Under the pieces are notes generated by a model. The model was not told the DNA's origin and searched no databases. It worked only from the letters and a program-made list of their open reading frames with translations. This document shows, one piece after another, positions 1,891 through 23,952 of a stretch of 64,000 bases of DNA. The translations under genes were made by a program, and so were the position numbers. The first letter of the stretch is position 1, and every line of letters begins with the position of its first letter. Source of the DNA: Eubacteriales bacterium (GTDB lineage: Bacteria > Bacillota > Clostridia > Oscillospirales > CAG-272); contig JAZRAJ010000091.1 of the NCBI GenBank assembly GCA_045634485.1, positions 166 to 64,165 on the forward strand, in the 5' to 3' direction.

Positions 1891-2061
1891 TGGCTTCGAA
1901 GTCTTTAAAAGCCTTGAACTTGCTCGCTTTTTCGCACGGTTCAACGCACTTTCCAAACAAAACCACGTGTCATAATTGTGTCTGAAAAAAATTGATGCTT
2001 TTTTGATGCTATAAGAAATTTTTGAGTACATATTAGCCGTCAGCGTGATGTTGATGTTATG
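1891..2061. repeat. conserved integrase-distal island arm (non-coding)
   Basis: About 170 bp that align closely with 16829-17000, e.g. GCTCGCTTTTT(T)CGCACG(G/T)TTCAACGCACTTT and ACCACGTGTC(A/G)TAATTGTGTCTGAAAA. Contains TTGATGC-N5-TTGATGC at 1992-2010. Confidence 0.85.
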
Positions 2062-2090
2062 CAAAATTTGGGGCGCAATGCAAACAAAAG
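2062..2090 (+). repeat. cargo-slot boundary repeat, left copy, island B
   Basis: CAAAATTTGGGGCGCAATGCAAACAAAAG. Related copies at 12385-12414, 17001-17031 and 21932-21965. Confidence 0.8.
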
Positions 2091-2149
2091 CGATATTATT
2101 TTTGCTTTTAAAAATATGTAATCTTTTCTTTGCATTTTTGTAAAAAAAC

Positions 2150-2178
2150 TTGAAAAAATGTCGAAAACGTGCTATAAT
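2150..2178 (+). promoter_or_regulatory. sigma-A type promoter heading the WYL/dynamin cargo
   Basis: TTGAAA (2150-2155), 17-nt spacer, TATAAT (2173-2178). Confidence 0.6.
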
Positions 2179-2184
2179 AAAAGA

Positions 2185-2340
2185 GCCGCATAATCCGAAT
2201 AATTGTACCGTTAAGGGAAGATACTTTGATAAAAAGGTGTTTTCTCGTTCTTTTCATACCTTAACGGAGGAAAAAGGATTGTGTGGCAACAATCGAGATG
2301 CACTTTTTTGTGCGTCTCTGTATGGAGGCGCACTTTTTTG
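2185..2340 (+). ncRNA. structured leader or small RNA with mutually exclusive hairpins ending in a terminator
   Basis: Stem CCGTTAAGG (2208-2216) pairs with CCTTAACGG (2259-2267). Segment 1 is GAGATGCAC (2295-2303), segment 2 GTGCGTCTC (2310-2318), segment 3 GAGGCGCAC (2325-2333), followed by T6. Pairing 2:3 gives a terminator; pairing 1:2 competes with it. Confidence 0.4.
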
Positions 2341-2448
2341 TTAATAACTCGGATTATATGACTTTATTCTATTGTATCATTTCAATTAGACACACCTATG
2401 TCTTACTGTTTTGATAAAATAAAAACATCAAAAAAGGAGGCAATTTTC

Positions 2449-3420
2449 ATGGAGTCAACGCGACAAGACAGAGCTCTTGAAATCTTCTTCCGCGCCTTGC
2501 GAGGAGAGGATATTGTTGTTAATGAATTAGCGAATGAATATGGTGTGTCAACTAAAAGTATATCAAGAAATATAAGTGATTTAAAATCATTTCTTGCCGA
2601 CCACAGAGAGCTTGTCGGAAATACCGAGCTTGAGTATTCATATAAGGATAAATGTTATAGATTATATATGGACGAGTTCCTATCCAACAAGGAGTTATTT
2701 GCGCTTGTTGAGGTAATGATTGGTGCAAGAGCTTTTTCAAAAATGGAGCTTTTGACATTGATTGATAAATTAAGAAACTTTACAACGGTTGATGATAGAA
2801 GTAAGCTTAACGAGCTTATAAGAAATGAGATATATCATTATCCCGAGGTGAAGCACGATTGCGAGAGTATTCAAGACAGTCTTTGGCAGATTGTGAATTG
2901 TATTAACGAGTGTAAGGAAATTACGATTGAATATTATCGCATGGATAGGCGGTGGAAAACTCATCGTATTTGTCCTGTATCTGTAATGTTTACAGATTAC
3001 TATTTTTACCTTATTGCATTTATGGCGGAGGGAAAAAAGGACAAGCCGTATTATTTTAGACTTGATCGCATTAAGAATGTTACCGAGCATAGAAAAAAGT
3101 ATTCGGTTGACGAGATTCCTGAGTTTGATGAGGGCTTACTTCGTAAGCGTAGTACGTTTATGTGGCAAGGTAAGCTACGAACAGTTCGTTTCGAATTTAG
3201 CGGGCCATCGGTTCAAGCGGTTCTTGATAAGCTTCCAACCGCAAGAATTATTGAGCGACTTGGAGATGGAAAATATCTTATTGAGGCTGAAACCTACGGC
3301 GACGGAATCAAGATGTGGCTGCTGAGTCAGGGTAGCTGGGTTAAGGTAGTAGCACCACAGGAATTTGTGGAGGAGATAAAAGAAGAAATTAATGAAATGA
3401 GTAGTTATTACATCGAATAA
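2449..3420 (+). CDS. HTH-WYL-WCX transcriptional regulator (BrxR/CapW/PafBC-like architecture)
   Basis: AAGGAGG RBS 7 nt before ATG 2449. N-terminal HTH (NELANEYGVSTKSISRNISDLKSF). WYL-domain signature (ITIEYYRMD...RICPVSVMFTDYYFYLIAF...PYYFRLDRIKNV). C-terminal WCX-like tail (KVVAPQEFVEEIKEEI). Confidence 0.85.
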   Translation: MESTRQDRALEIFFRALRGEDIVVNELANEYGVSTKSISRNISDLKSFLADHRELVGNTELEYSYKDKCYRLYMDEFLSNKELFALVEVMIGARAFSKMELLTLIDKLRNFTTVDDRSKLNELIRNEIYHYPEVKHDCESIQDSLWQIVNCINECKEITIEYYRMDRRWKTHRICPVSVMFTDYYFYLIAFMAEGKKDKPYYFRLDRIKNVTEHRKKYSVDEIPEFDEGLLRKRSTFMWQGKLRTVRFEFSGPSVQAVLDKLPTARIIERLGDGKYLIEAETYGDGIKMWLLSQGSWVKVVAPQEFVEEIKEEINEMSSYYIE

Positions 3421-3465
3421 TATTTGCCATTTTTTTAATGTTTTCACGTGTGAGGTAGAAATGAT

Positions 3466-5931
3466 ATGAAAGAAATCATATTGGCTAATGAAGTAAAAAA
3501 GATTCTCTCGTCATCCGAACAGAGAAAGCTTCGTTATGCCAGCGACTTAAACTGGTTAAATACATGGGAAAACTTATGGACAACAGACAGAATCCGTGTA
3601 GGCGTTGTCGGTGTTACGAGCAGCGGTAAATCAACTCTGATTAACGCTTTATTGGGCGACAATCTGTTGTCTGTTGCTGTTCGTCCTTCTTCCAGCCAAT
3701 TAGTGAGCTGTTCTTATGCAAAGGAACGCTCTGCTATAGTCTATTTCTTGGACGGCAAGAAAAAGAAAATCGGAGACAATGCACAGTTGAAAGATTCAAT
3801 CGTGCAGTATTCCGATGAAAGCTATAACAAGCGGAACGAAAAGCAGGTTGCCCAGCTTGAACTTTCTACGCCTAATTTTGACTTAGGCGAAGATGTTTTA
3901 TTGGTTGATAGCCCTGGCTTAGATGCAACCGGTTATGAAGCTCACGAAAAGCTGACCTTGGAAACGCTTCTTCCTACTGTCGATGTAGTCATCTTTGTTA
4001 CTACGGTCAAATCGGAAGTTGATAAGAAGATGAAGCAGACACTTGATACCATAGCAAAGTACAACTGCCCTGTGATGGTTGTTCAGAATATGCTTGATGC
4101 CGTTCGTCCGAGCGTTGATGGTAGAAAGAGTGCTGCCGACGTAGCTAAAGAGCGAATGAACCGAGTTCAATTAGCGGTAGAACAATCAAAGATAAAGAAT
4201 AAAAACGAAGTTAAAATCACTCAAATTTCCGCTGTTATGGCAATGCAATATCGTTGCCATAAAGAGCATAGCGAAGAAGAAACTCGTAATTTTAAGCGTT
4301 CCAGATATGAAACTTTTGTTGCCGGTGTAAAAGAATTGGTCGCATCTAAAAGACCGGAAATCGAAAAGCAGCGAGTGAAGACAATTTTGGAGCACATTGA
4401 GGAGCTTATTCGTCAAGAAGATAAGCGTACCCAAAATATCAGTACCAATATCCTTGTTGATAATACACTTTCTTCCGTATCCGAAAGTGTTACTGAAGCC
4501 TTGGACACTACATACGATGATATTCAAGGCGTTATTCAAGAATTACAGAGAATGTATGATAAATACTTCTCGGATAGCAACTCCACGAAAAAGAATAAGT
4601 CAACAGTTTCCTTTTTGGGGATTGCATCATCTCTATTCTCCTCCTCAAAGGATTCTCTTGATGAGGATGAAATCAAGGAAATCAAACGAGTAGTTAAGCT
4701 GTTTGAAACAAAGGTTGTCCAGAGTGTGCGTGGTTTCTCGACACAATGTTCAGCCGCAATCAAAAAATTAAATCTACCTACTCGTGATTTATGGAGTTAT
4801 AACGGACTTCCTCGTATGCCGGAAGTCGAAGTAAAAACCAAAACTGTAGAGCGCAGCAGAACGGTCAAGAAGAAAGGCTTCGGTCATACTCTCGGTAGAA
4901 TCTTTTCTTTGGGACTTTATAAAGGCACGGAAACAGAGCACTATACCGAAACTGTTGTTGACGATGAAGCAACACGGGAATCTGCCAAGCGTTATATTGA
5001 GCGACTTCAATTTGAATATGGCAAAACGCTCGAAGCTTGGCATACCAACGCTAAATCAACAGTTGCTTCTATACAGCAAGAAATCGACCTTCGTTTTGCA
5101 GCTATTCAAGAGAAAGAACAGCAAGTTATGGATGCTGCCGATTGGAAAGAAATCCGTGCGGCTCTTGAAAAGTACATGAGCGAATATGGTGGCATAAAGA
5201 CCCCTGTTGTACAAACGGAATCTACATCAAAAGAGCAACCACAAGAAACACAAGACAGCACCAAACTTATCAAGGTTTCTGCCCAAATTGCTCATTTACA
5301 TGATGCGGCTGAAAAATACCTTTTTGCCGTGCAGAGTTCCTCGTTTAATTACGCATTAGAAGCCAAAGAACGTAAAGGCTGTCCTGCTTTTGTAGTATCA
5401 AATAGCCCAGATAATTTAACGGACTTCCTTTATCGTTTCTACGGAATAAAAAAGAATGATTTCTCAAAGGAATCCATTCTACATCTTTCCGATGAGTTGA
5501 CCGTGGCTTGTTCCCCGACAGATGCTCAGTTGGAATCCTTGAAGCAACCGGCGACAGGCACGAACATTTTCCTGTTGATAAATGGCTTGCAGTTCCATAC
5601 CGAGTACGAAACAGCACTCCGTCATGCTGTTCAAGGGAACTTAAAAGATAATGATGCCCTGTTTTTCGTTATCCAAGATTTTGAAATATTGGCTAACGGA
5701 AATGCTATTACAGAGTGCATTAGAACCGTCCGGATGGAACAAGGTTCACACAAAGGCGTTGTTCTTATCAGCCATAAAAATCCCGTGTATAACATGGCTG
5801 TTATTCACGCTCAAACAACGGAAGGAAAACTCAAAGAAGAAACGATATTCTATAATTCTTTGACAACCAAGTTCCCATCATTGGTCGATGAAGTTGCAAA
5901 GAAACGTATAAACAACATATTGCGTACCTAA
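3466..5931 (+). CDS. dynamin-like GTPase A (821 aa) with an extra C-terminal alpha/beta-like domain
   Basis: G1 GVTSSGKSTLINALLG. G3 LLVDSPGLD. G4-like VVQNMLD. Long helical middle region. C-terminal ~220 aa unassigned. GAGGT RBS. Confidence 0.85.
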   Translation: MKEIILANEVKKILSSSEQRKLRYASDLNWLNTWENLWTTDRIRVGVVGVTSSGKSTLINALLGDNLLSVAVRPSSSQLVSCSYAKERSAIVYFLDGKKKKIGDNAQLKDSIVQYSDESYNKRNEKQVAQLELSTPNFDLGEDVLLVDSPGLDATGYEAHEKLTLETLLPTVDVVIFVTTVKSEVDKKMKQTLDTIAKYNCPVMVVQNMLDAVRPSVDGRKSAADVAKERMNRVQLAVEQSKIKNKNEVKITQISAVMAMQYRCHKEHSEEETRNFKRSRYETFVAGVKELVASKRPEIEKQRVKTILEHIEELIRQEDKRTQNISTNILVDNTLSSVSESVTEALDTTYDDIQGVIQELQRMYDKYFSDSNSTKKNKSTVSFLGIASSLFSSSKDSLDEDEIKEIKRVVKLFETKVVQSVRGFSTQCSAAIKKLNLPTRDLWSYNGLPRMPEVEVKTKTVERSRTVKKKGFGHTLGRIFSLGLYKGTETEHYTETVVDDEATRESAKRYIERLQFEYGKTLEAWHTNAKSTVASIQQEIDLRFAAIQEKEQQVMDAADWKEIRAALEKYMSEYGGIKTPVVQTESTSKEQPQETQDSTKLIKVSAQIAHLHDAAEKYLFAVQSSSFNYALEAKERKGCPAFVVSNSPDNLTDFLYRFYGIKKNDFSKESILHLSDELTVACSPTDAQLESLKQPATGTNIFLLINGLQFHTEYETALRHAVQGNLKDNDALFFVIQDFEILANGNAITECIRTVRMEQGSHKGVVLISHKNPVYNMAVIHAQTTEGKLKEETIFYNSLTTKFPSLVDEVAKKRINNILRT

Positions 5932-5954
5932 GAGGACGATGAAAGGAGATTGTC

Positions 5955-6860
5955 ATGCAATCTAAGGATATAGTAATGCAGGTTTCGGAAGAAACCGCTG
6001 AAGTAATGGAAGAAATATCAGAACAGCTTATGGAAGAATCTGATGCTCGTTTCGACGAAGTTGTGGAAGCCATCGAAGAAGCTGTAAAAAAAGTTGAAAG
6101 TCTCTATGCCGAGTTTACAGGCTATGCCGGTAATTCTAATAAGCAGCTAACATCAAACCAAGCGGAACTTATGGATAAGTTTGGTACTGTTTTGGATGCT
6201 ATTGGGGTGTTCAGAAAAGAAATTGGTGAACAAACAGTACAATCAAACGAAAAGGTTGATCGTTTGATTGTAATCATGGCTGATGTTCCCCAGCTCGTTC
6301 AAGCCGTTTCAAACAGCATCTCCGAATCCGCTGATGCGAGAGGCAAATTTGAAGCTACTCTTTTGGAAGATGTAAAGGGTCTTGCTCAAAGTCTTGTCGA
6401 ATTTCAGAAGCTTCAATCCGATGTTGTGGACAAGCTAAATGCTGATGACAGTCAAGAAAAGCTGATTTCTGCTCTAAATAAATTAACTGATATTGAAAAG
6501 GAAATTCTTCAAACCAAGGACGCTATCGGGAATGTTTCTGACACGCTTCGGAATTGTAGCACTCTTATCGAACAGCTTCTGTCCTCTGTGAAAGGCTTGC
6601 AGGAGAATGACGAAAAGATTCTTAATGTTGGTGAAGAAAACACCAAGAAGGCTGATGAGCTTGGAAAACAGACCGAGGAGACTTCAAAGCTACTCTTTGA
6701 AAAAATGGGCGATATATTGATCTATCTCGATACACTCTCCCATTCCGTTCAAACTATTTCGAAAAAGCAAAACGAACTCTGTGAAAAGCAAGCGGAGCTT
6801 GATAAAGATGTGAAATATTTGAAATTGCCATTCTTTAAAAGATGGTTTACGAAAGGATGA
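5955..6860 (+). CDS. acidic coiled-coil protein (301 aa) with a basic/aromatic C-terminal tail
   Basis: AAAGGAG RBS. E/D/Q/K-rich heptad-like sequence throughout. Ends in LKLPFFKRWFTKG. Its stop codon overlaps the next gene's start. Confidence 0.7.
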   Translation: MQSKDIVMQVSEETAEVMEEISEQLMEESDARFDEVVEAIEEAVKKVESLYAEFTGYAGNSNKQLTSNQAELMDKFGTVLDAIGVFRKEIGEQTVQSNEKVDRLIVIMADVPQLVQAVSNSISESADARGKFEATLLEDVKGLAQSLVEFQKLQSDVVDKLNADDSQEKLISALNKLTDIEKEILQTKDAIGNVSDTLRNCSTLIEQLLSSVKGLQENDEKILNVGEENTKKADELGKQTEETSKLLFEKMGDILIYLDTLSHSVQTISKKQNELCEKQAELDKDVKYLKLPFFKRWFTKG

Positions 6861-8704
6861 AGAAAATTATGGTAGACTATATTATAGGCGATTCAAGGTT
6901 GCTTGAATTGTTAGACAAATACTCTGCTGTTGTCGGTGAAGGAGCTAAGGCTTCCGACATTATCAGTAAATTGGCTCAGAATGTCCAAAACCCCGAACTC
7001 ATTGTGCCCGTGTTGGGTTCGCAAGGCATGGGAAAAAGCACTCTTATAAATGCTATCCTTGGTGCTAATATCCTTCCTAATGATGCAGATGAAACAACGT
7101 GTGTTCCTGTTGAAATCCGTTATGGCACAAACGAGAAGGCTGTGGTTTACTTCCAATCTGGAGAAACGGCAGAAATCGAACTCTCATGTGATTCGCTTCG
7201 TGAGTTCGTTGACAACAACGAAAACGACGGCAACGAAAAGTGTGTGTCTCACATTGCACTTGAAACGCCGAGCGAGTTACTTAAAACAGGTCTTGTCATT
7301 GTTGACCTTCCCGGTGTTGGCTCTTTGACACAGAATAACCACGAAACAACAATGAGATACATTCGCCAGTTGTGTACAGCAATTTTTGTTATCCCTACAG
7401 TACCCACAATCAGACGAAGTGAGGAAGTCTTTATTCGTGGTGCTTGGAGCAGTTTTTCTTCTGCTATTTTTGTTCAGAACAGATGGGATGACGAGACAGA
7501 CCAGGAAGTTAATGATTCTGTGGCTTTCAACTCTTTAGTATTAAATAACATCGCTAAAAACGCCAATACAACTTTCAACGGAAAGATTTGTGTGGTTAAT
7601 GCGTATAGAGCTATTCTAAGCAGATTACATAATGATTCCGCAGAGTGTGAGCGTTCTAATCTTCCGGAGCTTCTTACCGAGTTGGAAAACCTCGGTGAAA
7701 ATAGAATCAATCTGGAAACCGCCAATTTTAAGGCAAAAGTCGGTTCCTATATTGAGGCAGCCCAAGCTGCTATTATGCAGTATATTGCCGAAAGTCAAAT
7801 GAACGAAGAACAGCTCCGTGCTGAACGAGAGAGGATTTACGAGGAGTTTAATGCTGCTACTAACGAAATCCAGCAGCTTGTTGATGATGTTTTGGAGTGT
7901 GTAGAAGACGAAAAAAACAAAGCAGACATTTTCGCCGGAAAATTGGCTAAAGAATCTGCTGAAAGTCTTCGTGCCGACACTCACAAATTGATAGGCAATG
8001 GTATTGTTGATGGCGAGCAGTTGACGGAGGCGTTTTCTGACTATCAAGAGAAGTATCTTTTGGATGCGGTTGAGCAGCACTACGATTATATGAATACCAT
8101 GACCTACGAGTTAGGCAAAAAACTTGAAGTTTTGGCAGAAAAGATTTCACTTGAACGAGCATCTTCCTTTGAAGCTCAGAAGTTTGAAAACGGACAAGCT
8201 TTCAAGTTTGAGAAAGGGTTGGAGTTTGGTATTGACCTTGCTGGAGCCATTGGTGGTACATATACTGCTGCTGCAGTTGGTGGCATGGCGTGTTGGACTA
8301 GTGGCAAAATCGGTGCAGCTCTTGGTTCTGCTGGTGGACCTATTGGTACTGCAATAGGTATTGTGGCTGGTATTGCTGTAGGTGTTGTTGTTGGACTTAT
8401 AGGAAAGAAAACTAAGCATAGCATTACTGCTAAACGTGGCTCACAAGCAAAAAAAGCAATCGAGCCTTTCATCGAGGAATTTCAAGATAAAATCTATGTG
8501 TCTATTTCCTCAAACATTAACGCAGTTATGGAGAGCATCACGGATATTCTGCAATCCTATATAGAAGACCGCAGAGCCTACTATGAAGATATGATGCAGG
8601 CGAAAGAACGTGCTGCTGATGCAGACCATGAAAGCAAATTTGACGTTGCCGAGCTGAATGAGCATTACGCTTATCTTGAAAGCAAAAAGGAGGCTTTGAA
8701 ATGA
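6857..8704 (+). CDS. dynamin-like GTPase B (~615 aa) with a glycine-zipper membrane hairpin
   Basis: G1 GSQGMGKSTLINAILG. G3 VIVDLPGVGS. G4-like VQNRWDD. Hydrophobic Gly-rich stretch GAIGGTYTAAAVGG...GIVAGIAVGVVVGLIGKK (nt ~8238-8410). The start is taken as ATG 6857 (ATGA overlap with the upstream stop); 6842 or 6869 are possible. Confidence 0.85.
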   Translation: MKKIMVDYIIGDSRLLELLDKYSAVVGEGAKASDIISKLAQNVQNPELIVPVLGSQGMGKSTLINAILGANILPNDADETTCVPVEIRYGTNEKAVVYFQSGETAEIELSCDSLREFVDNNENDGNEKCVSHIALETPSELLKTGLVIVDLPGVGSLTQNNHETTMRYIRQLCTAIFVIPTVPTIRRSEEVFIRGAWSSFSSAIFVQNRWDDETDQEVNDSVAFNSLVLNNIAKNANTTFNGKICVVNAYRAILSRLHNDSAECERSNLPELLTELENLGENRINLETANFKAKVGSYIEAAQAAIMQYIAESQMNEEQLRAERERIYEEFNAATNEIQQLVDDVLECVEDEKNKADIFAGKLAKESAESLRADTHKLIGNGIVDGEQLTEAFSDYQEKYLLDAVEQHYDYMNTMTYELGKKLEVLAEKISLERASSFEAQKFENGQAFKFEKGLEFGIDLAGAIGGTYTAAAVGGMACWTSGKIGAALGSAGGPIGTAIGIVAGIAVGVVVGLIGKKTKHSITAKRGSQAKKAIEPFIEEFQDKIYVSISSNINAVMESITDILQSYIEDRRAYYEDMMQAKERAADADHESKFDVAELNEHYAYLESKKEALK

Positions 8705-10500
8705 CTTTTTCTGACTTAAAGAAAAAACACGAAATCATTCAAAAGCTGATTGATGCTACAAACGATGAAGAACTTTCCACTTTGTCCAAGTTTATGCGTA
8801 GCAGAATTTCTTCTCCTGAAAGCTATGTTACGATGCTGGGTGAAACAAGTAGCGGAAAGACTACTTTAATCAACGGGCTTCTTAATGAACGACTTTTGAA
8901 AACAAGTGCAGTTCCAACTACAGGTGCAATCGTGGAAGTCCACTTTGATTCTGAGGTTACATCTCCAGAATATTATGCCATCAATCGTGATGCCACAATG
9001 GAGAGACTTGATGCAAATACTTTCGGGGATTTATCGAGTAATCCCGACGATTTGTTAGCAAGATTGCAAATTGCTGTTCCGGAAGTTAATGGTCTTGCTG
9101 GATTAAGATTGTTTGACACTCCTGGTTACGGTTCCATTGTGGATAAGCACGAGGAAGTTCTGCGAGAGTTCATTCCTAACAGCGATGTTATCATCTATGT
9201 TATTGGCTACAAAATCGGCATCCAAGAAAACGACTTTCTCTTTATGCGTTGCATCCAGGAGCTGATACACGATGATACGGATGTAATTGTTGTTGTAAAC
9301 CGTTGTCCTGCAACGGTCTCAGAAAAAGATAGACGTATGACGGAGATTCGCCGTTATGCAGAGGATTTGTTCCATAGGGATATTCCGATTTTTACTGTAG
9401 CAACCGAAACGAGCGATACCGGATATACGTTGCCTAAAGCTGCAAATTTGTGGGCTTATGTAAATAAATTGCTGAACTCTGCAGAGAGACAAGAAACGCT
9501 TATCAGTACACTCAACTCTTATCTGGATGACCTTTTGGCGCAGGCAGATAGCCTCATCGAAAAGCACGAGCTTGCAAACATCATGTCTCAAAAAGAGAAA
9601 GAGGAACTCAAAGCCTGTGCTGACGAGCTTCGTAGAAAAGGCAACGACATCGTAAATACGGAAATCACTCCTACGTTTGACCGCCTTATTGCAAATACAC
9701 CAAGATTGTTTGAACAGGCAAAGGAAACCATTCATGCGGAACTTTCTGAAGCTATTGCTGATGAAAGAACATGTCGCATGGATGAAACCATCGCTTTTGT
9801 AAATAACCACTCTCTCCCCATGGCAATTAACCGAGAAACCAAGGAGTATGAAAGACGGTTAATGCTGGAACTTGATGCAATGAATGAGCGTGTTGACGAT
9901 TATCTCAACGAGGCTATCGCTAACTACTACCATGAAATCGAACTTCATTTTGCAACAAACGCAGAGCTTGCAGCTCGTACAGGCGGAGGCAAAATCGTGG
10001 GTAAGATGATGGAAAACGGCTTGCGTCAATACTTTGCCGCTTTTGGCGGCGCTGGCGGTGCAGGTGCCGGTGTTGCAAACGCCGCAAAGCACTTGCTAAG
10101 TAAAACAGGAAAGCTTTTCGGTAAAAAATTCTCGCGCGAAACATACAACAAACTTGCTCACACTCTCAGTAAGATGAAATTCACGTCGCTTAAGGCAATT
10201 GGAAATGCTGTTACTGTAATAATTGAGGTTGCCCAGGTCATAATCGACTATTCGACGTGGAAGCCAAAGTTAAAGAAACAAGTCCGAAAAGGTTTGGGTG
10301 AGTGGTATGACAAGACCGTAGATACCGTAACCAAGGACTTGGAAAACCTTAAAGCTGAAAACATTAAAACACTGAAGGATATTATCGACGATATTGCCTC
10401 TACATACGAGCTGGAGGCAGAGGAAATGATTGAAAATATGCCAGAACTGATAGCGTTGAAAGCTGAAACACATAAGAAATTGGAGGAAGCAAAATTATGA
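8701..10500 (+). CDS. dynamin-like GTPase C (599 aa)
   Basis: AAGGAGG RBS and an ATGA overlap with the upstream stop. G1 GETSSGKTTLINGLLN. G3 RLFDTPGYGS. Degenerate G4 VVVNRCP. Gly-rich FAAFGGAGGAGAGVANAA (nt ~10035-10083). Confidence 0.85.
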   Translation: MTFSDLKKKHEIIQKLIDATNDEELSTLSKFMRSRISSPESYVTMLGETSSGKTTLINGLLNERLLKTSAVPTTGAIVEVHFDSEVTSPEYYAINRDATMERLDANTFGDLSSNPDDLLARLQIAVPEVNGLAGLRLFDTPGYGSIVDKHEEVLREFIPNSDVIIYVIGYKIGIQENDFLFMRCIQELIHDDTDVIVVVNRCPATVSEKDRRMTEIRRYAEDLFHRDIPIFTVATETSDTGYTLPKAANLWAYVNKLLNSAERQETLISTLNSYLDDLLAQADSLIEKHELANIMSQKEKEELKACADELRRKGNDIVNTEITPTFDRLIANTPRLFEQAKETIHAELSEAIADERTCRMDETIAFVNNHSLPMAINRETKEYERRLMLELDAMNERVDDYLNEAIANYYHEIELHFATNAELAARTGGGKIVGKMMENGLRQYFAAFGGAGGAGAGVANAAKHLLSKTGKLFGKKFSRETYNKLAHTLSKMKFTSLKAIGNAVTVIIEVAQVIIDYSTWKPKLKKQVRKGLGEWYDKTVDTVTKDLENLKAENIKTLKDIIDDIASTYELEAEEMIENMPELIALKAETHKKLEEAKL

Positions 10501-10913
10501 GTCGTGATTTTGAAATCGTTCAAAGTAGAAGAAATACCCCCACCCCTGCAGTAGACCAGGGAGATGTTACTGTTCTCCCTTCTTCTCAAAACAATTCTCG
10601 TATCGGAGATGCTATTGCAGATAACTTCGGTCAGATATTAGACCTTGCATCCAATATTGTTGAAATTGAGAAGATGAAGGTTCAGTCCGAGGCTGTATTG
10701 AAGCAGATGGAGGAATCCAGAAAGAATCTCTTGGCAGAGGCAGAGGCTTATGCCACTAAGAAAAATGCCGATACTGACAGCGTAATTCAGAAAATGCAGA
10801 TGGTCAGAGACATGATGCGTGATTTCTACCAGTACAACAACAATGCTAATCTGTCCGGCGAAGACTTCTCTCGCATAATCAGCAGCATTGTTAGTGAGAT
10901 GGGACGGTTATAA
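10497..10913 (+). CDS. hypothetical helical protein (138 aa), operon member
   Basis: ATGA overlap with the stop of the preceding GTPase gene. GGAGG RBS at 10482-10486. No family recognised. Confidence 0.65.
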   Translation: MSRDFEIVQSRRNTPTPAVDQGDVTVLPSSQNNSRIGDAIADNFGQILDLASNIVEIEKMKVQSEAVLKQMEESRKNLLAEAEAYATKKNADTDSVIQKMQMVRDMMRDFYQYNNNANLSGEDFSRIISSIVSEMGRL

Positions 10914-10914
10914 T

Positions 10915-11247
10915 ATGGTATCAATCGGTGGATTTGGCGATTTGTTTTCTGTTGTTTTAGCCGCTTCTAAGGATAAGGTTTATATGGAAACAGCCGAGAA
11001 AATGCAGGCTGCTTTTCATGAACTGATTCTTGCTGAGGCTGATGCAAGGCGAGATAAAACAGCTACGTTGATTCGTACCATGGCAAAAATCGATGGTGAG
11101 GTTATTCGATTTAAAATAGAATATAATCGTATTATTGAACAGTTATCACCAGAGGCTATAGCTGCAATTGATGGCTATTTGAAAATAATAGAGCAGAAGA
11201 AGAAAGATATTGCTCACGAAAAAAATGCAATGAAGGTTAGGAGGTAA
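10915..11247 (+). CDS. hypothetical helical protein (110 aa), operon member
   Basis: ATG lies 1 nt after the upstream stop. Same strand and compact spacing. No family recognised. Confidence 0.55.
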   Translation: MVSIGGFGDLFSVVLAASKDKVYMETAEKMQAAFHELILAEADARRDKTATLIRTMAKIDGEVIRFKIEYNRIIEQLSPEAIAAIDGYLKIIEQKKKDIAHEKNAMKVRR

Positions 11248-11252
11248 TACTT

Positions 11253-11465
11253 ATGTCATCGTTGTTGGTGAACATAAAGCATATAAATAAATGCGCATTT
11301 TGCAAGTATTGGTATGATCCTACGAATAGTGCGATTATTCCTAAATCGCCCGCTATTGGATTATGGGAAATACGCGACATTAATCAAAAATGTATGTGCT
11401 TAAAGAAAAATGCTAAAATGTCTGCTAATTCATTTTGCAGTAGCGATTTTATCAGTAAAATTTAA
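11253..11465 (+). CDS. Cys-rich small protein (70 aa)
   Basis: GGAGG RBS inside the end of the previous gene. CAFCKYW...CMC...C pattern suggests metal binding. Confidence 0.55.
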   Translation: MSSLLVNIKHINKCAFCKYWYDPTNSAIIPKSPAIGLWEIRDINQKCMCLKKNAKMSANSFCSSDFISKI

Positions 11466-11506
11466 TTTTAAAAATTATTATTTATTTGATGGAGAAAATA
11501 AAATTC

Positions 11507-11641
11507 ATGAGCATTCTTATTATGAAGCGTAAATGTGTATATTGTAAGAAGGTATATACATATAATCCAAGTGTTGGAAATTTCGGGCTTGTGTGTCCGA
11601 AATGTAATAGGAGTCAGCCGATTTCTCGTTTTATAAAGTAA
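11507..11641 (+). CDS. zinc-ribbon mini-protein (44 aa; not in the supplied ORF track)
   Basis: MSILIMKRKCVYCKKVYTYNPSVGNFGLVCPKCNRSQPISRFIK. Pattern is CxxC-N17-CxxC. GGAGAA lies upstream of the ATG. Confidence 0.45.
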   Translation: MSILIMKRKCVYCKKVYTYNPSVGNFGLVCPKCNRSQPISRFIK

Positions 11642-11715
11642 AAAAATATTAAACGGTTTAAAAACGAATTTTGGTTGAATGTTCTTATAATTTGTTTATC
11701 AAGACACCCATCTGT

Positions 11716-11768
11716 CCTCCTGTAAGTGTATAATTTTAGTACAAGCTAAAAATTATATTTACAGGAGG
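11716..11768 (+). promoter_or_regulatory. long hairpin sequestering the RBS of the 11776 ORF
   Basis: CCTCCTGTAAGTGTATAATTTT (11716-11737) pairs with AAAATTATATTTACAGGAGG (11748-11768). The right arm contains the GGAGG located 7 nt before ATG 11776. Confidence 0.55.
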
Positions 11769-11775
11769 CTTTTTT

Positions 11776-12357
11776 ATGATATTCGATTGGAAGAACAACA
11801 AAGAGGAAGCGTTAGCTAACGGTGTGTATGAGAAAAATATTTTATCTGTTGGCTTAGTTATGATGAAAACGACAAACAAGGTGGTTGCGCATCATACGTT
11901 CCGCAACTTTGAAAAGCTGGAATTTGAAGAGGGAACGCTCATTGAGGATTGCATTTTTGAGGATTGCGGCACGATTACGTTTAACGAGTGCAGAATTGAG
12001 AATTGCTCATTTTCTCGTATAGAATTTATTTATTCTACCGACGATTGCTTTAGCAATTCAAAGTTTTCAAAGTTGGTGTGCGATGATGATATGCTAATAA
12101 GCTTAGAGAACACAGAAATCACTCATTGTAGCTTTGATGACGTGGAGCTTCGTGAGGATTCCTATCTTTGCGATGGCGTTGGAACAGCGTGGATTGAGCA
12201 TTGTAGCTTTTCAAATATTCGCACAAGCAGAGAGGATAAGGAAATTATTATTAGCGAGCAAACTGTCGGTAAGATTTTCAAGCGCAAGGAGCAGTTTTGC
12301 ATTGTAGATGAAGAAACCTGCACCGGACTTGATTCTATTATTGAATTAGAGGATTGA
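11776..12357 (+). CDS. hypothetical protein with repetitive Cys/Phe-containing beta-helix-like repeats (193 aa)
   Basis: Repeats such as IEDCIFEDCGTITFNECRIENCSFSRIEF and ITHCSFDDVEL...IEHCSFSNIR resemble pentapeptide/beta-helix repeat proteins. The family assignment is not secure. Confidence 0.6.
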   Translation: MIFDWKNNKEEALANGVYEKNILSVGLVMMKTTNKVVAHHTFRNFEKLEFEEGTLIEDCIFEDCGTITFNECRIENCSFSRIEFIYSTDDCFSNSKFSKLVCDDDMLISLENTEITHCSFDDVELREDSYLCDGVGTAWIEHCSFSNIRTSREDKEIIISEQTVGKIFKRKEQFCIVDEETCTGLDSIIELED

Positions 12358-12384
12358 AGCTTTTAAAATGGTTTTTTCGCCCCT

Positions 12385-12414
12385 CAAAATTTGGGGCGCA
12401 TAAACAAAGAAGAA
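12385..12414 (+). repeat. cargo-slot boundary repeat, right copy, island B
   Basis: CAAAATTTGGGGCGCATAAACAAAGAAGAA. Partners at 2062-2090, 17001-17031 and 21932-21965. Confidence 0.8.
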
Positions 12415-12450
12415 GGATTTTTGAAATCAAGTAAATTTACGGTCATTATC

Positions 12451-12479
12451 TTGACAAGTTTTTCGTCTTGTGTTATAAT
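12451..12479 (+). promoter_or_regulatory. perfect consensus promoter (extended -10), specific to island B
   Basis: TTGACA (12451-12456), 17 nt, TGtTATAAT (12471-12479). The ~100 bp containing it is absent from the homologous region of island A. Confidence 0.65.
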
Positions 12480-12550
12480 CAAATAGAACGATATGTTCTT
12501 AAAATTGAAAGTGAGCTATCCGCCCATCTGTGAAAATGGGGAGCAAGGGT

Positions 12551-12611
12551 GAGCATCAGGAGATATTGTAGAGTTTTTCTGCGGTCTTTTGATGCTCATT
12601 TTTTTATTTTT
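12551..12611 (+). terminator. long-stem intrinsic terminator (conserved backbone element)
   Basis: GAGCATC (12551-12557) ... GATGCTC (12591-12597), followed by ATTTTTTTATTTTT. The homologue is at 22008-22067. Confidence 0.6.
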
Positions 12612-12956
12612 GCGAGTGGTGGTATATTTGAATTTCACTCATTTTGGAGTGATTTTGAGCCGAAAATTCCCGCCGTATTTTGTTGCAGGAATAAGGGCGA
12701 CGTCGTGTGCGACGTTTCGCCCGAACACATCGGTCGGCAACGCCGACCGTTCAAGGCTTTGTGAGGATTTCTTCTACGACGTCGTGTTGCGCAAATTTTT
12801 GGTGAAACAATGGCGTTTTGCGCAAAAATCTGCGTGAGCTTTAGAGTTGCAAGGCTTTGTTTTGCAGTCGTAAAAGTTTTTGCGTCAAATTTCAAAAAAT
12901 GCTGGATATATCGTGGAATTTGTGGTATTGTATGTGCTAACGAAAGGAGATTTTTT

Positions 12957-14177
12957 ATGGCAACTAAAAAACTATTAACTAACGGAAATGCGTTCAAGCG
13001 GACTGACGGTCGTTGGGGTGGTACGGTCTGGTATATGGATGAGTCGGGCGAGCGAAAACGCAAGAGCTTTTCGGGTACGATCAAGCAAGAGGTAAACAAG
13101 AAAATGACTGCCTATATTGAGGACTTCAACCGTGAAATTGAAAACTCAATCGAGGCGAACAAGACGCTAAAAGATAGTATGACGAATTTGCTTCAAGTCT
13201 TTAAATTCCCGTCGGTCGAACGCACAACATACGATAGGTATGAGTGTACCGCCATCAATCAAATTTATCCGTTGATTGGGGAAAAAACGGTTGGGAATAT
13301 TTCTTCTGCCGATATAAAAAAAGTCCTCAATCATTGGATGAATGAGGGCTACGCATATACAACGGTCAAAAAAGTACACATTATTCTCGGTGAATATTTT
13401 AAATATCTCACTCAACAAGAGATGATAACGAAAAATCCTATGCTTTCAGCGCCGATGATTAAAAAGAGTAATTTCTATGCTATGCAGGACAAGGAAGATT
13501 TGCCGACGAGTGAAACGGTAACGATTTTCACGGCGGAAGAAATAGAAAAATTAAAGGCAGAGGCGAGCAAAACCTATAAGACTGGAAAGAAACTTTACCG
13601 CCAAGCGGGAGCGTATATTTTGATGCTAAACACGGGACTTCGAGCTGGCGAAATGTTGGGCGTTTTGAACGCAGATATTGACCTTGAGAGGCGAGTTCTG
13701 CACTTGCAAAGGGGAGTAAAGGTTGTGAATAAACGCAACGGTGTGGAGCTTTTAGACGGCTCAACCGAGGTAAAGGTCGGAAAGCTGAAAAGTGCGACGA
13801 GCAAACGAGATATTCCGCTTAATGATGTTGCAATTCAAATGATAAAGGAGCTGCGAGCGGAGTTCTACTTTGGCGAGGACAGTCCGCTGATTTGCGACGA
13901 AAACGGAGATTTCACAAAACCCGATGTGTTCAGACGGAGATTTCACCGACTACTTGACGGAGCAGGGATAGAAAGCAAAGGTCTGCACGCACTACGTCAT
14001 ACGTTTGCGACAAACCTTGTAAACGGAGTAAGGCAACCCGACGGAACGGTTAAGGCGCTGACCGTAAGGCAAGTCGCAGATCTGCTCGGACATTCAACAA
14101 CGCAGGTAACCGAGATGTATTATGTGAAAAAGGATAACAAAATGCTGGGTGGGATAACGGATGGGTTTTGTTTGTGA
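12957..14177 (+). CDS. int: tyrosine integrase with N-terminal arm-binding domain (406 aa); copy 2 of 3
   Basis: AAAGGAG RBS. N-terminus FKRTDGRWGGTVWYMDESGERKRKSFSG resembles the Tn916-type arm-binding domain. Catalytic motifs: LRAGE, HALRHTFATN, LLGHS, EMYYV. Same length as copy 3 and closely collinear with it. Confidence 0.93.
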   Translation: MATKKLLTNGNAFKRTDGRWGGTVWYMDESGERKRKSFSGTIKQEVNKKMTAYIEDFNREIENSIEANKTLKDSMTNLLQVFKFPSVERTTYDRYECTAINQIYPLIGEKTVGNISSADIKKVLNHWMNEGYAYTTVKKVHIILGEYFKYLTQQEMITKNPMLSAPMIKKSNFYAMQDKEDLPTSETVTIFTAEEIEKLKAEASKTYKTGKKLYRQAGAYILMLNTGLRAGEMLGVLNADIDLERRVLHLQRGVKVVNKRNGVELLDGSTEVKVGKLKSATSKRDIPLNDVAIQMIKELRAEFYFGEDSPLICDENGDFTKPDVFRRRFHRLLDGAGIESKGLHALRHTFATNLVNGVRQPDGTVKALTVRQVADLLGHSTTQVTEMYYVKKDNKMLGGITDGFCL

Positions 14178-14405
14178 GGGGTTGCAGATTTTGTGAAAAT
14201 ATGATATAATGATCTTGTTTATCAAGAGTGTACGAAATAAAGCGAAAAATAAGAGTTTTGTGGTGTTTTATATAGAAAAAAGCAAAATGCAACCGGTAGT
14301 TGACACATTGAAAGCTGGCGGTTGGTAGTGTGCAAGTGCGATTTGTGCTATAATATAGGCACGATAAAGCGCAGGCTTTACGAATTTATCAAACGAGGTA
14401 TTTTT

Positions 14406-15206
14406 ATGATTTTGGCAGATAAGATTATTAGATTGCGAAAAAAGAATGGTTGGTCACAAGAGGAGCTTGCAGATAAAATGAATGTATCCAGACAAGCTGT
14501 TTCAAAATGGGAAAGTGCGCAAAGCATCCCCGATTTAGAAAAAATATTACAGCTTAGCAAGTTGTTTTGTGTTACAACAGATTATTTGTTAAAGGATGAT
14601 ATTGAGGATGAAGAATTTACGAATGATTCGTATGATGCGTCCGTTAAAAAAATCACCATAGAAGAGGCGAACATTTATCTCAATCAAAGAAAAAAAGCTT
14701 CTTGGCGTATTGCGCTTGCTACATTTTTATGCATTATATCTCCCATAACTCTCATTATTTTGACTATATTATCGGAACAACCTAATTCTATTGTAACGGA
14801 AATAACAGCATGCGTAATTGGATTAATTGTTTTGTTTGCTGTTGTTTTGTGTGCTGTTCCGATTTTTATCTATTGCGGATTTAAAAACCAGCCGTATGAA
14901 TTTCTTGATAAGAATATTCCATTTGAGCTTGAATACGGAGTTAGAGGATTGGTAAACGAAAAGAAGAAAGCTTTAAGAACTGCTTATGTTACTTATAATA
15001 TAATCGCAACCTGTTTATGTATTTTTTCTGTTATTCCACTAATTTTATTATCTTTTACGGAAAACGAGGTGCTTATTGCGGTTGCACTTGCTGTAGCTTT
15101 AGTTATTGTAGGTGTAGGCGTAGGAATGTTTATCGTAGTCGGAACTCAAAACGCAAGTATGCAAAGGCTTCTTAAAGAGGGGCACTTCGCTGAAAATCAG
15201 CGTTAA
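14406..15206 (+). CDS. membrane-anchored XRE-family HTH protein (266 aa)
   Basis: GAGG RBS before ATG 14406. HTH_3 motif (IRLRKKNGWSQEELADKMNVSRQAVSKWESAQSIPDLEKILQLSKLF), followed by about 4 hydrophobic helices. Confidence 0.8.
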   Translation: MILADKIIRLRKKNGWSQEELADKMNVSRQAVSKWESAQSIPDLEKILQLSKLFCVTTDYLLKDDIEDEEFTNDSYDASVKKITIEEANIYLNQRKKASWRIALATFLCIISPITLIILTILSEQPNSIVTEITACVIGLIVLFAVVLCAVPIFIYCGFKNQPYEFLDKNIPFELEYGVRGLVNEKKKALRTAYVTYNIIATCLCIFSVIPLILLSFTENEVLIAVALAVALVIVGVGVGMFIVVGTQNASMQRLLKEGHFAENQR

Positions 15207-15232
15207 AATAAAGATTTTACGGAGATAGTTAT

Positions 15233-15766
15233 ATGAAAAATAAAAATACTGATTTTAAAGAAATTGGTGGTTTTAGCGTTAATGACAAGAAACCACAAAC
15301 GGTATTGTCGGTAATGTTTTTGCTGATAGCAGGTGTTGGCGCAGGTATTGTGTTTCTTACTCAAGCATATGCAAACAATGTCGTTCCCGTTTGGGTAATA
15401 ATATTGTCGGTAATTGCTTTTATCATCATACACGAATTGATACACATTGTATTTATGTCTGCTTTTTCAAAAGGTAAGATTAATGCTAAAATCAAATTTC
15501 CTACGATAGCTGTTGGTTCAGATGCGTATTTTAGTAAAGTGCAATATGTAATTATCGCATTAGCGCCTGTTATTATTTTGGGAATAGCGAGCTTGATTTG
15601 CTTATTATTGCTTCCACACAAGCTATTATTCTCTATATTATTAGTATTAAATTTTGCTACTGCAAGTGGAGATTATATTTTAACTTATTATGCATTAAAG
15701 CAAAATAAGAATACATATTTTGTGGATATGGCAGAAAAAACAATAATTTATTCACAATGCGATTGA
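15233..15766 (+). CDS. polytopic membrane protein with HExxH motif (DUF3267-like putative zincin peptidase)
   Basis: IIHELIHIVF (HELIH) at a helix end. Several TM helices. 177 aa. Confidence 0.65.
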   Translation: MKNKNTDFKEIGGFSVNDKKPQTVLSVMFLLIAGVGAGIVFLTQAYANNVVPVWVIILSVIAFIIIHELIHIVFMSAFSKGKINAKIKFPTIAVGSDAYFSKVQYVIIALAPVIILGIASLICLLLLPHKLLFSILLVLNFATASGDYILTYYALKQNKNTYFVDMAEKTIIYSQCD

Positions 15767-15840
15767 TTATAAATGTATTGAGTAAATTGGATATGATATA
15801 ATAATTGTGTTAGTGAATAGTTTAATGAGGTAGTTTATAC

Positions 15841-16446
15841 ATGAATAAATATGAAAAACGTTCCCAAAAAAACTATGATAAAAAAGCAGAAAAATACGAT
15901 TCTACATTTGACGGAAAATTTACTGTAAAATTAAATGAAACCTTATGTGATATGATTTCGACAAATGATGAAGATATTATAGCTGATGTTGCTTGCGGTA
16001 ACGGACGCTTGTTGTATATGCTCGCTCAAAAAAAATCGTTTAAAGGATATGGCGTTGATCTTTCTGAAAAGATGATTTTAGAAGCGAAAAAGCAAAATCC
16101 TAAAATGGATTTTTTCGTTGCGGGGTGTGAAAATCTTCCGTTTAAAAATCAAGAAATAGATATAATGACGGTTTGTGCAGCATTTCATCATTTTCCGGAT
16201 ATTCAAAAATTTGCCCAAGAAGCAGGTAGAGTGATAAAGAAAAATGGAGAATTATATATCGCAGATGTATATTTGCCCACATTTTTCAGATTGATATGTA
16301 ATCCATTTGTGAAGTTGTCAAAATCCGGTGATGTTAAATTTTATTCGCCAAAAGAAATTGTTGAACTGTTTGAAAATAATGGCTTTGTAAAAAATAGCGT
16401 TGAAATAAAAGGTAAGTTTCAACTTATAAAATTACAAAGAATTTGA
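15841..16446 (+). CDS. class I SAM-dependent methyltransferase (201 aa)
   Basis: Motif I DVACGNGRLL. Post-I GVDLSEKM. Methyltransf_11-like layout. Confidence 0.8.
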   Translation: MNKYEKRSQKNYDKKAEKYDSTFDGKFTVKLNETLCDMISTNDEDIIADVACGNGRLLYMLAQKKSFKGYGVDLSEKMILEAKKQNPKMDFFVAGCENLPFKNQEIDIMTVCAAFHHFPDIQKFAQEAGRVIKKNGELYIADVYLPTFFRLICNPFVKLSKSGDVKFYSPKEIVELFENNGFVKNSVEIKGKFQLIKLQRI

Positions 16447-16570
16447 TTGATTTTATCGTAAATATGCATAAAAGGCTGACGAATTTTTAATCGTCAGCCT
16501 TGAATTTTTGATACTTTTTTGATGCTGTACTGTACGGAAATAGTTTCACGGTATAGCACCGAAAAGAAAA

Positions 16571-16744
16571 GTGAAATATTCGGCTTTGCCGAATGTGAAA
16601 TAATCCACTTCGTGAATTGTGAAATATTTCCCTTCGGTCGATGTGAAATGAAATTTGCCCACATTCGCGTCAGCGAATATTTCACATTTGCGGAGCAAAT
16701 ATTTCACAGCAAAGCTATTTCACTTGCCTAAAGGGCAAATTTCG
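16571..16744. repeat. phased heptamer array, second copy (island B integrase-proximal end)
   Basis: GTGAAAT at 16571, 16595, 16619, 16643 (exact 24-bp period). ATTTCAC at 16679, 16701, 16717. ATTTCG at 16739. Spacer examples: ATTCGGC-TTT-GCCGAAT, AATCCAC-TTC-GTGAATT, ATTTGC-GGA-GCAAAT, AGC-AAA-GCT, TTGCCT-AAA-GGGCAA. Confidence 0.85.
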
Positions 16745-16747
16745 TTG

Positions 16748-16781
16748 AAAAAAGCCCAACGCGATTGCGTTAGGCTTTTTT
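16748..16781. terminator. bidirectional hairpin terminator abutting the tRNA-fragment repeat
   Basis: Same sequence as 1810-1843. Confidence 0.6.
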
Positions 16782-16783
16782 CT

Positions 16784-16828
16784 TGGCAGGGGCGGGAGGA
16801 CTCGAACCCGCGACCCACGGTTTTGGAG
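16784..16828 (-). repeat. 45-bp direct repeat of the tRNA-Trp 3' part; att junction between island B and island A
   Basis: Identical to 1846-1890 and 23953-23997. Confidence 0.95.
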
Positions 16829-17000
16829 TGGCTTAAAAGTGCCGTGAAGCCTTGAAAATGCTCGCTTTTTTGCACGTTTCAACGCACTTTTCACACTAAA
16901 CCACGTGTCGTAATTGTGTCTGAAAATTTTTGATGCTTTTTTGATGATATGATAAAATTTCAGCTTACATATTAGCCGCTAACGTACTTTTGACGCTCCT
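16829..17000. repeat. conserved integrase-distal island arm (non-coding)
   Basis: Aligns with 1891-2061. Contains TTGATGC-N5-TTGATGA at 16930-16948. Confidence 0.85.
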
Positions 17001-17031: not shown

Positions 17032-17099
17032 TAATTTATAAAGATGAAAGGCTTAATGTAAAGAAAAAATAATTATTTTAATAAAGATACTTTACTTTT

Positions 17100-23948: not shown

Positions 23949-23952
23949 TTAT

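Follow-up and report, generated by a model that had tools for sequence, protein, structure and literature searches.

A conserved six-gene cassette with three dynamin-like GTPases: an enlarged, Eleos-related candidate defence system on a tRNA-Trp integrative island

Is an operon with three dynamin-like GTPases a larger variant of the two-gene Eleos system, or a distinct system? This question was left by an earlier note on a 64,000 nt stretch of DNA from an Eubacteriales bacterium (contig JAZRAJ010000091.1), here called the window, in which positions 2449-11641 encode a WYL regulator, three dynamin-like proteins (DLP1, DLP2 and DLP3), an acidic coiled-coil protein (CC) and four small proteins. 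Dynamin-based immunity is known from bacteria (Eleos, DynA) and from animals (Mx, GIMAP), and its mechanism is poorly understood. Eleos, formerly called 'Dynamins', consists of the two genes LeoA and LeoBC and includes LeoABC of enterotoxigenic E. coli, and about 60% of its loci lie next to defence genes (bioRxiv 10.1101/2022.05.11.491447). It gives P-loop-dependent protection of B. subtilis against jumbo phages by a mechanism that is not known (bioRxiv 10.1101/2022.05.11.491447; 10.1101/2022.12.12.520048). We find that six of the genes form a conserved cassette, which we class as an enlarged variant within the dynamin/Eleos group. It cannot count as plain Eleos, since it does not answer to the two-gene definition; nor is it new as a category, since it shares the core chemistry and the likely site of action with bacterial dynamins already known. 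Of the two possibilities left by the note, the larger variant, with a Leo-like pair inside it, is hence favoured over a wholly distinct system.

The operon consists of nine closely packed open reading frames (ORFs) on the plus strand within 2398-11641. Its genes, and the gene that follows it, are:

2449-3420, plus strand: HTH-WYL-WCX transcriptional regulator (Pfam WYL 5e-9, WCX 9e-9; PADLOC WYL 2e-24)
3466-5931, plus strand: DLP1, 821 aa (Dynamin_N 4.8e-18)
5955-6860, plus strand: CC, acidic coiled-coil protein, 301 aa, with positional homologues in most cassettes
6857-8704, plus strand: DLP2, 615 aa, LeoBC-like dynamin GTPase (Dynamin_N 3.7e-23)
8701-10500, plus strand: DLP3, 599 aa, LeoA-like dynamin GTPase (Dynamin_N 9.6e-18)
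10497-10913, plus strand: S138, small helical protein, kept in about 30 cassettes
10915-11247, plus strand: S119, small helical protein, 110 aa, kept across cassettes
11253-11465, plus strand: C70, Cys-rich CxxC mini-protein, 70 aa, a facultative seventh gene
11486-11641, plus strand: C51, zinc-ribbon-like mini-protein with CxxC...CxxC, 51 aa, a rare accessory gene
11776-12357, plus strand: acidic Cys-rich protein, 193 aa, with weak beta-helix/pentapeptide matches below threshold

Stop/start overlaps (ATGA) are found at 6857-6860, 8701-8704 and 10497-10500, and the remaining gaps are 45, 23, 1, 5 and 20 nt. The earlier note had the ORF positions, the overlaps and the short gaps (1-45 nt) right, and the composition of the products agrees with its description of an interleaved acidic coiled-coil protein followed by two helical and two Cys-rich mini-proteins. 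The regulator starts at the ATG at 2449, 8 nt after AAGGAGG, and the true start of S119 is the ATG at 10915, which gives 110 aa and not 119. The span once proposed for cloning, 2150-12360, took in the 193-aa gene, which lies behind a 135-nt gap and has a promoter-like site of its own; the operon itself reaches to 11641.

All three large products are dynamin-type GTPases, as had been claimed: the Pfam profile search gave Dynamin_N scores of 66.2, 82.8 and 65.2 bits for DLP1, DLP2 and DLP3, against a gathering score of 27. The translations contain every motif that had been quoted, namely the P-loops GVTSSGKST, GSQGMGKST and GETSSGKTT, the switch II motifs DSPG, DLPG and DTPG, and the G4-like motifs NMLD, NRWD and NRCP (in the order DLP1, DLP2, DLP3). 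In searches by sequence all three match within the set formed by the bacterial dynamin-like protein (BDLP), IniA, Cj-DLP and mitofusin, and the BDLP fold, a G domain followed by a helical neck/trunk, is recovered for DLP1 by a structure model and for DLP2 and DLP3 by sequence only. Aligned with one another, the three agree over the GTPase domain alone, with identities of about 25-27% and E values between 1e-11 and 2e-16, which bears out the earlier view that they would be old paralogues.

The cassette was surveyed in metagenomic contigs and in one representative genome per species, followed by an iterative profile search of six-frame ORFs; loci of this survey carry L numbers below. The gene order DLP1-CC-DLP2-DLP3-S138-S119 was found in 33 non-redundant cassettes of the genome collection, in further metagenomic contigs and on one megaplasmid; about 35 species genomes or metagenome-assembled genomes have it. 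The hosts include Clostridia (Lachnospiraceae, Oscillospiraceae, Clostridium, Anaerovirgula, Desulfosporosinus, Fuchsiella) and Bacilli (Tumebacillus, Ectobacillus, Paenibacillus, Lysinibacillus, Brevibacillus), along with Synergistales, Brachyspira, Treponema and other Spirochaetia, Flavobacterium, Rikenellaceae and other Bacteroidota, and a metagenome-assembled genome of Pseudomonadota. Across 34 cassettes the pairwise-identity matrices of DLP1, DLP2 and DLP3 correlate with r = 0.91-0.96; the three GTPases thus co-evolve, and the genes of the cassette have moved as a group, to identities as low as 20-25%. The Brachyspira cassette is as near to that of the window as the one in Clostridium folliculivorans, and nearer than the one in Clostridium neonatale. 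Such similarity out of step with taxonomy indicates horizontal spread.

The earlier note had asked whether 9-10 genes co-occur. The six-gene core is indeed linked across phyla, so that the extra genes did not prove unlinked elsewhere, and the layout differs from two-gene Eleos as had been stated, with six co-conserved genes that include a third, non-Leo dynamin. The WYL gene, C70, C51 and the 193-aa gene, on the other hand, are facultative or local. Among about 36 loci, only about 6-7 have a WYL regulator in front of the cassette, directly upstream in the window, L005, L020, L026, L028, L053 (where it is split) and L057 (where two GmrSD genes lie between), and WYL genes are next to or near about nine cassettes. 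The WYL regulator with its leader, both zinc-ribbon-like mini-proteins and the 193-aa gene were therefore, in our view, added locally in this island lineage. A tblastn search of phage genomes gave no match to the cassette, and a scan of IMG/VR gave only distant G-domain matches at 22-29% identity. A phage-borne origin was rejected on these grounds.

DLP2 and DLP3 are the two members that resemble Eleos. Using the PADLOC Leo profiles without a curated cut-off, DLP2 matched LeoBC (2e-13, 48 bits) and DLP3 matched LeoA (7e-22, 76 bits) over profile positions 101-543 of 559. The orthologues in a Brevibacillus (L034) matched LeoBC with 6e-27 over profile positions 58-590 of 601 and LeoA with 3e-19, while the two-dynamin loci L047, L051 and L052 gave no comparable matches. 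Near-full-length Leo matches here and in the distant L034, with none in unrelated loci, argue that the cassette contains a remote LeoBC/LeoA-like pair, and annotation tools may label DLP2 and DLP3 as Eleos. In PDB sequence searches DLP2 matched BDLP with 3.6e-17 and IniA with 7e-12, and DLP3 matched IniA and mitofusin weakly. GK[ST], DxPG and the G4 Asn are kept in the DLP2 and DLP3 sets, whose family alignments are partly mixed and served for motif presence only. DLP2 carries a Gly-rich, strongly hydrophobic stretch at about 461-520 (hydropathy peak 2.39 at 485-520), which we take as a putative membrane paddle or hairpin; the corresponding Gly-rich stretch of DLP3 at about 425-520 is amphipathic (peak 1.74 at 496-518).

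DLP1 is built differently. Its BDLP/mitofusin-type GTPase domain (40-265) is followed by a helical stalk (281-574), a disordered linker (577-597) and a C-terminal alpha/beta domain (601-821). The AlphaFold2 model has a mean pLDDT of 79.8, with the tip hairpin at low confidence, and a Foldseek search with it found Nostoc BDLP (2j69, 8e-14) first, then IniA, Cj-DLP1/2 and MFN1/2, and LeoA (4aur) with 4e-9. The fold prediction suggested by the earlier note thus recovered the BDLP class. Across 69 DLP1 sequences the G/K/S/T, DSPG and QNMxD columns are invariant. Modelled alone, the domain 601-821 reached a pLDDT of 93, and its top structural neighbours are all small or TRAFAC GTPases (Rab, Era, Nog1, Irga6), with weak scores (E about 2e-3, TM 0.4-0.5); no enzyme or nuclease fold was among its Foldseek matches. 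The family consensus of this domain shows no GxxxxGK[ST] at the expected place of the P-loop, hence the domain is probably a degenerate, non-catalytic G-like module. Among 1.8 billion representative proteins, searched exhaustively, the domain turned up only at the end of DLP1-type proteins or their fragments. DLP1 as a whole has several hundred full-length relatives (about 820 aa). DLP1 gives no Leo-profile match in PADLOC of the kind found for DLP2 and DLP3. We regard DLP1 as a separate BDLP-fold family with its own C-terminal domain.

The remaining products were assigned to no family: searches of Pfam, NCBIfam, PADLOC and PHROGs gave none for CC, S138, S119, C70, C51 and the 193-aa protein. 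CC is acidic (59 D/E against 36 K/R) and keeps its place in the cassette at lengths of 79-390 aa, and S138 and S119 are 130-145 and 105-115 aa long across cassettes. Profile searches with S138 and S119 against PDB sequences returned coiled-coil noise only. In one subclade S119 homologues carry a fused C-terminal LRAT/NlpC-P60 domain (PF04970, about 1e-21):

L011, 8416-9294: LRAT-fused S119 homologue
L020, 13591-14478: LRAT-fused S119 homologue
L026, 14784-15710: LRAT-fused S119 homologue
L028, 17069-17971: LRAT-fused S119 homologue

The LRAT/NlpC-P60 family includes phospholipid acyltransferases and phospholipases. The fusion would tie the small subunit S119 to membrane lipid and points to a phospholipid-modifying activity within the system. 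A profile search for further S119 relatives returned hypothetical proteins only and no additional fusions. The mini-proteins C70 and C51 have five and four Cys, respectively. C70 is limited to close relatives, following S119 in L003, L005, L006, L053 and L057, and to one rearranged locus (L011) in which it precedes DLP1; C51 has a homologue in one other locus only (L028). The 193-aa protein has 11 Cys and no homologue in any of the fetched related loci.

The regulator at the head of the operon has the HTH-WYL-WCX architecture that had been noted, with WYL at 36.4 bits and WCX at 36.0 bits above the Pfam thresholds and HTH_11 weak and below it (9e-4). The sites in and around its leader are:

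2150-2178, plus strand: promoter-like TTGAAA-17-TATAAT with extended -10, 11/12 consensus matches
2185-2345, plus strand: structured 5' leader, possible attenuator (minimum free energy -58.9 kcal/mol, z = -6.9)
2388-2403: palindrome AGACA-N6-TGTCT, candidate WYL operator, just upstream of the regulator ribosome-binding site
11702-11716: a further copy of the motif (AGACA-N6-TGTC), within the 135 nt that precede the 193-aa gene

Across this region promoter-like sites are overall no commoner than in shuffled sequences, and the same holds for terminator-like sites inside the operon. The 270-nt leader after the promoter contains a long hairpin (2208-2267), a terminator-like hairpin followed by a T-run (2310-2333) and a competing alternative hairpin. 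As no Rfam family matched 2185-2345, the leader could be an undescribed attenuator or small RNA (sRNA). The AGACA-N6-TGTCT pattern has four matches in the window against 0.26 expected; it recurs in front of the WYL genes of L053 and L028, and L005 has it behind C70 in the same relative position. This would fit autoregulation by a BrxR/CapW-like repressor through a candidate palindromic operator. Because the second copy lies upstream of it, the 193-aa gene, a window-specific cargo, is possibly part of the same regulon.

The operon was further claimed to be exchangeable cargo of an integrase island whose sister carries AbiE. This description is borne out, as the repeats, the integrases and AbiEi/AbiEii were all found:

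1842-1890: left att-like repeat, a 49-nt copy of the tRNA-Trp 3' half, identical to 16780-16828
16780-16828: right att-like repeat, found by repeat comparison, doubling as left border of the AbiE sister island
12957-14177, plus strand: island tyrosine integrase (the ORF opens at 12810; M50 is the likely start, judged from the copy at 22471)

A third copy of the repeat (23949-23997, 98%) lies inside a genuine tRNA-Trp (23953-24028), and the array has three tyrosine integrases that are 85-90% identical: one at 73-810, which the start of the window truncates, and two more at 12810-14177 and 22471-23691. From the tRNA-Trp repeats and the three integrases it follows that the window holds a tandem array of integrative islands, with the dynamin operon as cargo of the middle one (about 1891-16779). 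That island has what defines an integrative island, a tyrosine integrase and direct repeats from a tRNA 3' end. The sister island carries AbiEi/AbiEii and a large superfamily 1 (SF1) helicase. No near-identical DNA was found in plasmid or phage collections, and an exact-sequence look-up returned no record for DLP1 or for its Clostridium folliculivorans homologue.

Some other features of the array deserve mention. The SF1/UvrD-like helicase of the sister island (18641-21874, plus strand, 1077 aa) follows AbiEii directly and may be a second defence gene there; its repeat tail is long and charged, and a CxxC...CxxC motif lies at the C-terminus. Two copies of the Rfam Gut-1 RNA motif (RF01706) lie on the minus strand at 1732-1809 and 16674-16747 (72.4 and 60.3 bits; gathering score 50), each separated by about 30-35 nt from one of the 49-nt att repeats, with weaker plus-strand matches at 1619-1690 and 16569-16654. 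Rfam lists Gut-1 as an sRNA and does not state a function; it looks like a fixed end feature of this tRNA-Trp integrative island family. A conserved hairpin-containing sequence, GCCCCTCAAAATTTGGGGCG then ATAAACAAAGAAG, occurs at 2060-2090, 12379-12431, 16996-17048 and 21927-21979. In each of the two complete islands it borders the cargo on either side, and it may represent backbone terminators or a cargo-swap junction. The middle island has three further cargo genes between its integrase and the right att repeat (14322-16446, plus strand): one codes for an HTH_3 membrane protein, one for a putative zincin peptidase (DUF3267) and one for a protein of 201 aa. The first two resemble a membrane-tethered regulator with its protease.

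What surrounds the cassette elsewhere was assessed in ten distinct neighbourhoods with usable annotation:

This window: att-flanked island adjoining the AbiE island
Anaerovirgula (L056): upstream DISARM-like genes (DUF1998/MZB, PLD, C5 methylase); downstream Gabija-like genes (OLD-TOPRIM ATPase, UvrD) and a WYL gene
L057: WYL and two GmrSD_N genes, with TnpV, RepA_N and ParB (a RepA_N/ParB element)
L053: type I HsdR, DUF4238 and a resolvase
L064: type III restriction-modification, a 1613-aa SF1 helicase-nuclease and AAA_14/DUF4143
Paenibacillus megaplasmid pART37 (L061): DpdJ region upstream; Abi protein and KAP NTPase downstream
L062: IS66 and DUF1016 remnants
L003: uninformative neighbours
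L055: housekeeping neighbours only, including MerR and a peroxidase
Brachyspira, two species: one shared chromosomal slot between two Hsp20 genes and birA/bioB

Recognised defence genes occur in six of the ten, a raw count from a small sample. The survey of neighbourhoods proposed by the earlier note thus came out in favour of defence islands in these six, but not for Brachyspira, with its fixed site, nor for L055. The 202 flanking proteins from 33 loci include scattered WYL, HTH, restriction-modification, integrase, resolvase, transposase and PDC matches among metabolic genes; the idea of a fixed neighbour was rejected, since they have no common family beyond WYL and HTH. The pattern is the signature of a mobile accessory module which often lands in defence islands.

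Two further GTPase arrangements came up in the survey. Just downstream of the Synergistales cassette (L014, 8239-11527) are three tandem genes for GTPase-like proteins of about 350-375 aa with weak DLP-profile matches; three pooled flank proteins, from loci including L014, match MMR_HSR1, and two each match DUF697 and AIG1. The L014 genes may form a second, septin/GIMAP-like GTPase module. In Lachnoanaerobaculum orale (L052, 4308-11863) the gene of a WYL regulator precedes two large ones for dynamin-like proteins of 918 and 768 aa, which are unrelated to the six-gene cassette and have barely any Leo-profile match. It looks like another WYL-headed two-dynamin arrangement.

Regarding function, we hold it somewhat more probable than an even chance that the cassette is an enlarged, Eleos-related, membrane-acting candidate system of defence against phages or other invaders. 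The defence-island contexts and the patchy cross-phylum spread argue for a mobile accessory module, short of proof of immunity. Gene content, folds, intact motifs, conservation, co-evolution and contexts are observed, as described above; from these we propose, conditionally, how complex formation, a trigger, membrane activity and an anti-phage role could be connected. In this scheme DLP2 and DLP3 would be distant LeoBC-like and LeoA-like partners, making the cassette an enlarged relative of two-gene Eleos. The WYL protein would hold the operon low through AGACA-N6-TGTCT and the structured leader until an infection- or damage-derived cue arrives. DLP2, with its hydrophobic Gly-rich paddle, and DLP3, with its amphipathic one, might then come together on the cytoplasmic membrane and form a heterotypic dynamin pair. 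DLP1 would join this pair by way of its stalk and of CC, with its Ras-like domain, which has no P-loop, serving as a sensing or docking module. S138 and S119 may scaffold the assembly or target it to lipid, with the LRAT-type phospholipid enzyme on S119 in one subclade. GTP hydrolysis by the three intact G domains would remodel, tether or seal the membrane, and so might block phage genome entry or progeny release, or damage the membrane in an abortive mode.

Several observations weigh against this reading. Four of the ten annotated contexts have no defence genes; the flanking proteins are heterogeneous and many are metabolic; the Brachyspira cassette sits at a fixed chromosomal site that is core-like and stress-related in look, and L055 has housekeeping neighbours only. 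The Leo scores are low (48-93 bits), and as PADLOC has no other dynamin models they may partly reflect generic BDLP similarity. The Ras-like view of the DLP1 C-terminal domain leans on Foldseek scores of E about 2e-3, and operator and attenuator are proposed at the level of sequence patterns. Finally, the mechanism of Eleos itself is not known, so likeness to Eleos says little about how the cassette would act.

More tentatively, we speculate that the cassette might be a hetero-oligomeric machine of three distinct dynamins, in which the DLP1 Ras-like domain would sense infection and three small helical subunits would direct GTP-driven remodelling, with an LRAT phospholipid enzyme added in one subclade. 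This would make it a class of membrane immunity with a new mechanism and not an Eleos variant. We know of no three-dynamin hetero-oligomeric machine described in any organism.

The main rival, rather doubtful and slightly more so than this speculation, is a general envelope-stress or membrane-repair module like mycobacterial iniBAC or B. subtilis DynA. It would respond to membrane damage of any origin (antibiotics, bacteriocins, heat), would be found on islands merely as a useful accessory trait, and would protect from phages only incidentally. IniA and DynA are membrane-stress proteins, and IniA is among the best sequence matches; moreover, the two Hsp20 genes beside the cassette in two Brachyspira species are divergently oriented, L055 has its MerR and peroxidase neighbours, and the flanks of the Brevibacillus cassette look like AddAB and SbcC repair genes. 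Such a module is, however, hard to reconcile with the patchy distribution across phyla on att-flanked islands and plasmids, with its place right between genuine defence systems in six of ten contexts, with the recurrent BrxR/CapW-type WYL regulators, or with a resemblance of DLP2/DLP3 that is specifically to LeoBC/LeoA. A function for the mobile element in place of the host appears improbable. It could be membrane vesicle formation or secretion, as was proposed at first for LeoA of enterotoxigenic E. coli, or the keeping out of rival plasmids and conjugative elements. The carriers are integrase islands, a RepA_N/ParB element and a megaplasmid, and the release of toxin with vesicles was the first role connected with LeoABC (PMC4159319), but the flank survey found no consistently linked transfer, secretion or toxin genes, the cassette is stably chromosomal in Brachyspira, and it was not found in phage genomes and viral contigs. 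That it is plain two-gene Eleos with unrelated passengers we can practically dismiss despite the LeoBC and LeoA profile matches of DLP2 and DLP3, given that DLP1, CC, S138 and S119 stand in the same order beside the pair in about 35 loci down to 20-25% identity, that DLP1 co-evolves with the pair, and that ATGA overlaps couple the genes translationally.

How, then, does the enlarged Eleos-related cassette compare with what has been described? A literature search for a three-dynamin or six-gene dynamin system found no published description. Like Eleos, it has two neighbouring genes for dynamin-like GTPases whose P-loops are intact, with DLP2 resembling LeoBC and DLP3 resembling LeoA near full length, and a similar share of contexts in defence islands (about 60%, six of ten, against the 60% reported for Eleos). 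It differs by adding DLP1 with its C-terminal pseudo-GTPase domain, CC and two small helical proteins, so that a definition of two genes, or three if LeoBC is split, does not cover its six; in addition, LeoA of enterotoxigenic E. coli (4aur) is absent from the PDB sequence matches of all three DLPs.

Among housekeeping dynamins, Campylobacter Cj-DLP1/2 is a heterotypic tethering pair (PMC6104087) and DynA seals membranes and delays phage lysis (PMC8844932). Cj-DLP1/2 (5owv), the two-headed DynA and Nostoc BDLP share with the cassette the BDLP/mitofusin-class fold of G domain, helical neck/trunk and a membrane paddle, which in the cassette proteins is putative, and the pairing of genes in one operon; unlike them, the cassette has three paralogues and extra non-GTPase subunits and is island-borne and patchy. 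IniA mediates membrane fission (PMC6715688). The iniBAC operon likewise combines two dynamin-like proteins (IniA and IniC) with the small IniB in one inducible unit, and IniA is among the best PDB matches of DLP2 and DLP3, but iniBAC is a core, stress-induced mycobacterial operon that has no third dynamin, no S138, S119 or CC homologues, no WYL regulator and no defence-island setting. The BrxR and CapW repressors offer a parallel for an HTH-WYL-WCX protein that heads a candidate defence operon and has a palindrome upstream, with the difference that only a minority of the cassettes have a WYL regulator.

Current defence-finder models would label two of the six genes at best, so that the full system probably goes unrecognised or is wrongly annotated in gut Firmicutes, spirochaetes and other groups. 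As the cassette wires three different dynamins to defined partners, among them a pseudo-GTPase domain and in some lineages a phospholipid enzyme, it represents a tractable, genetically separable system in which one may ask how heterotypic dynamin assemblies form, what sets them off and how they act on membranes in the course of an infection.

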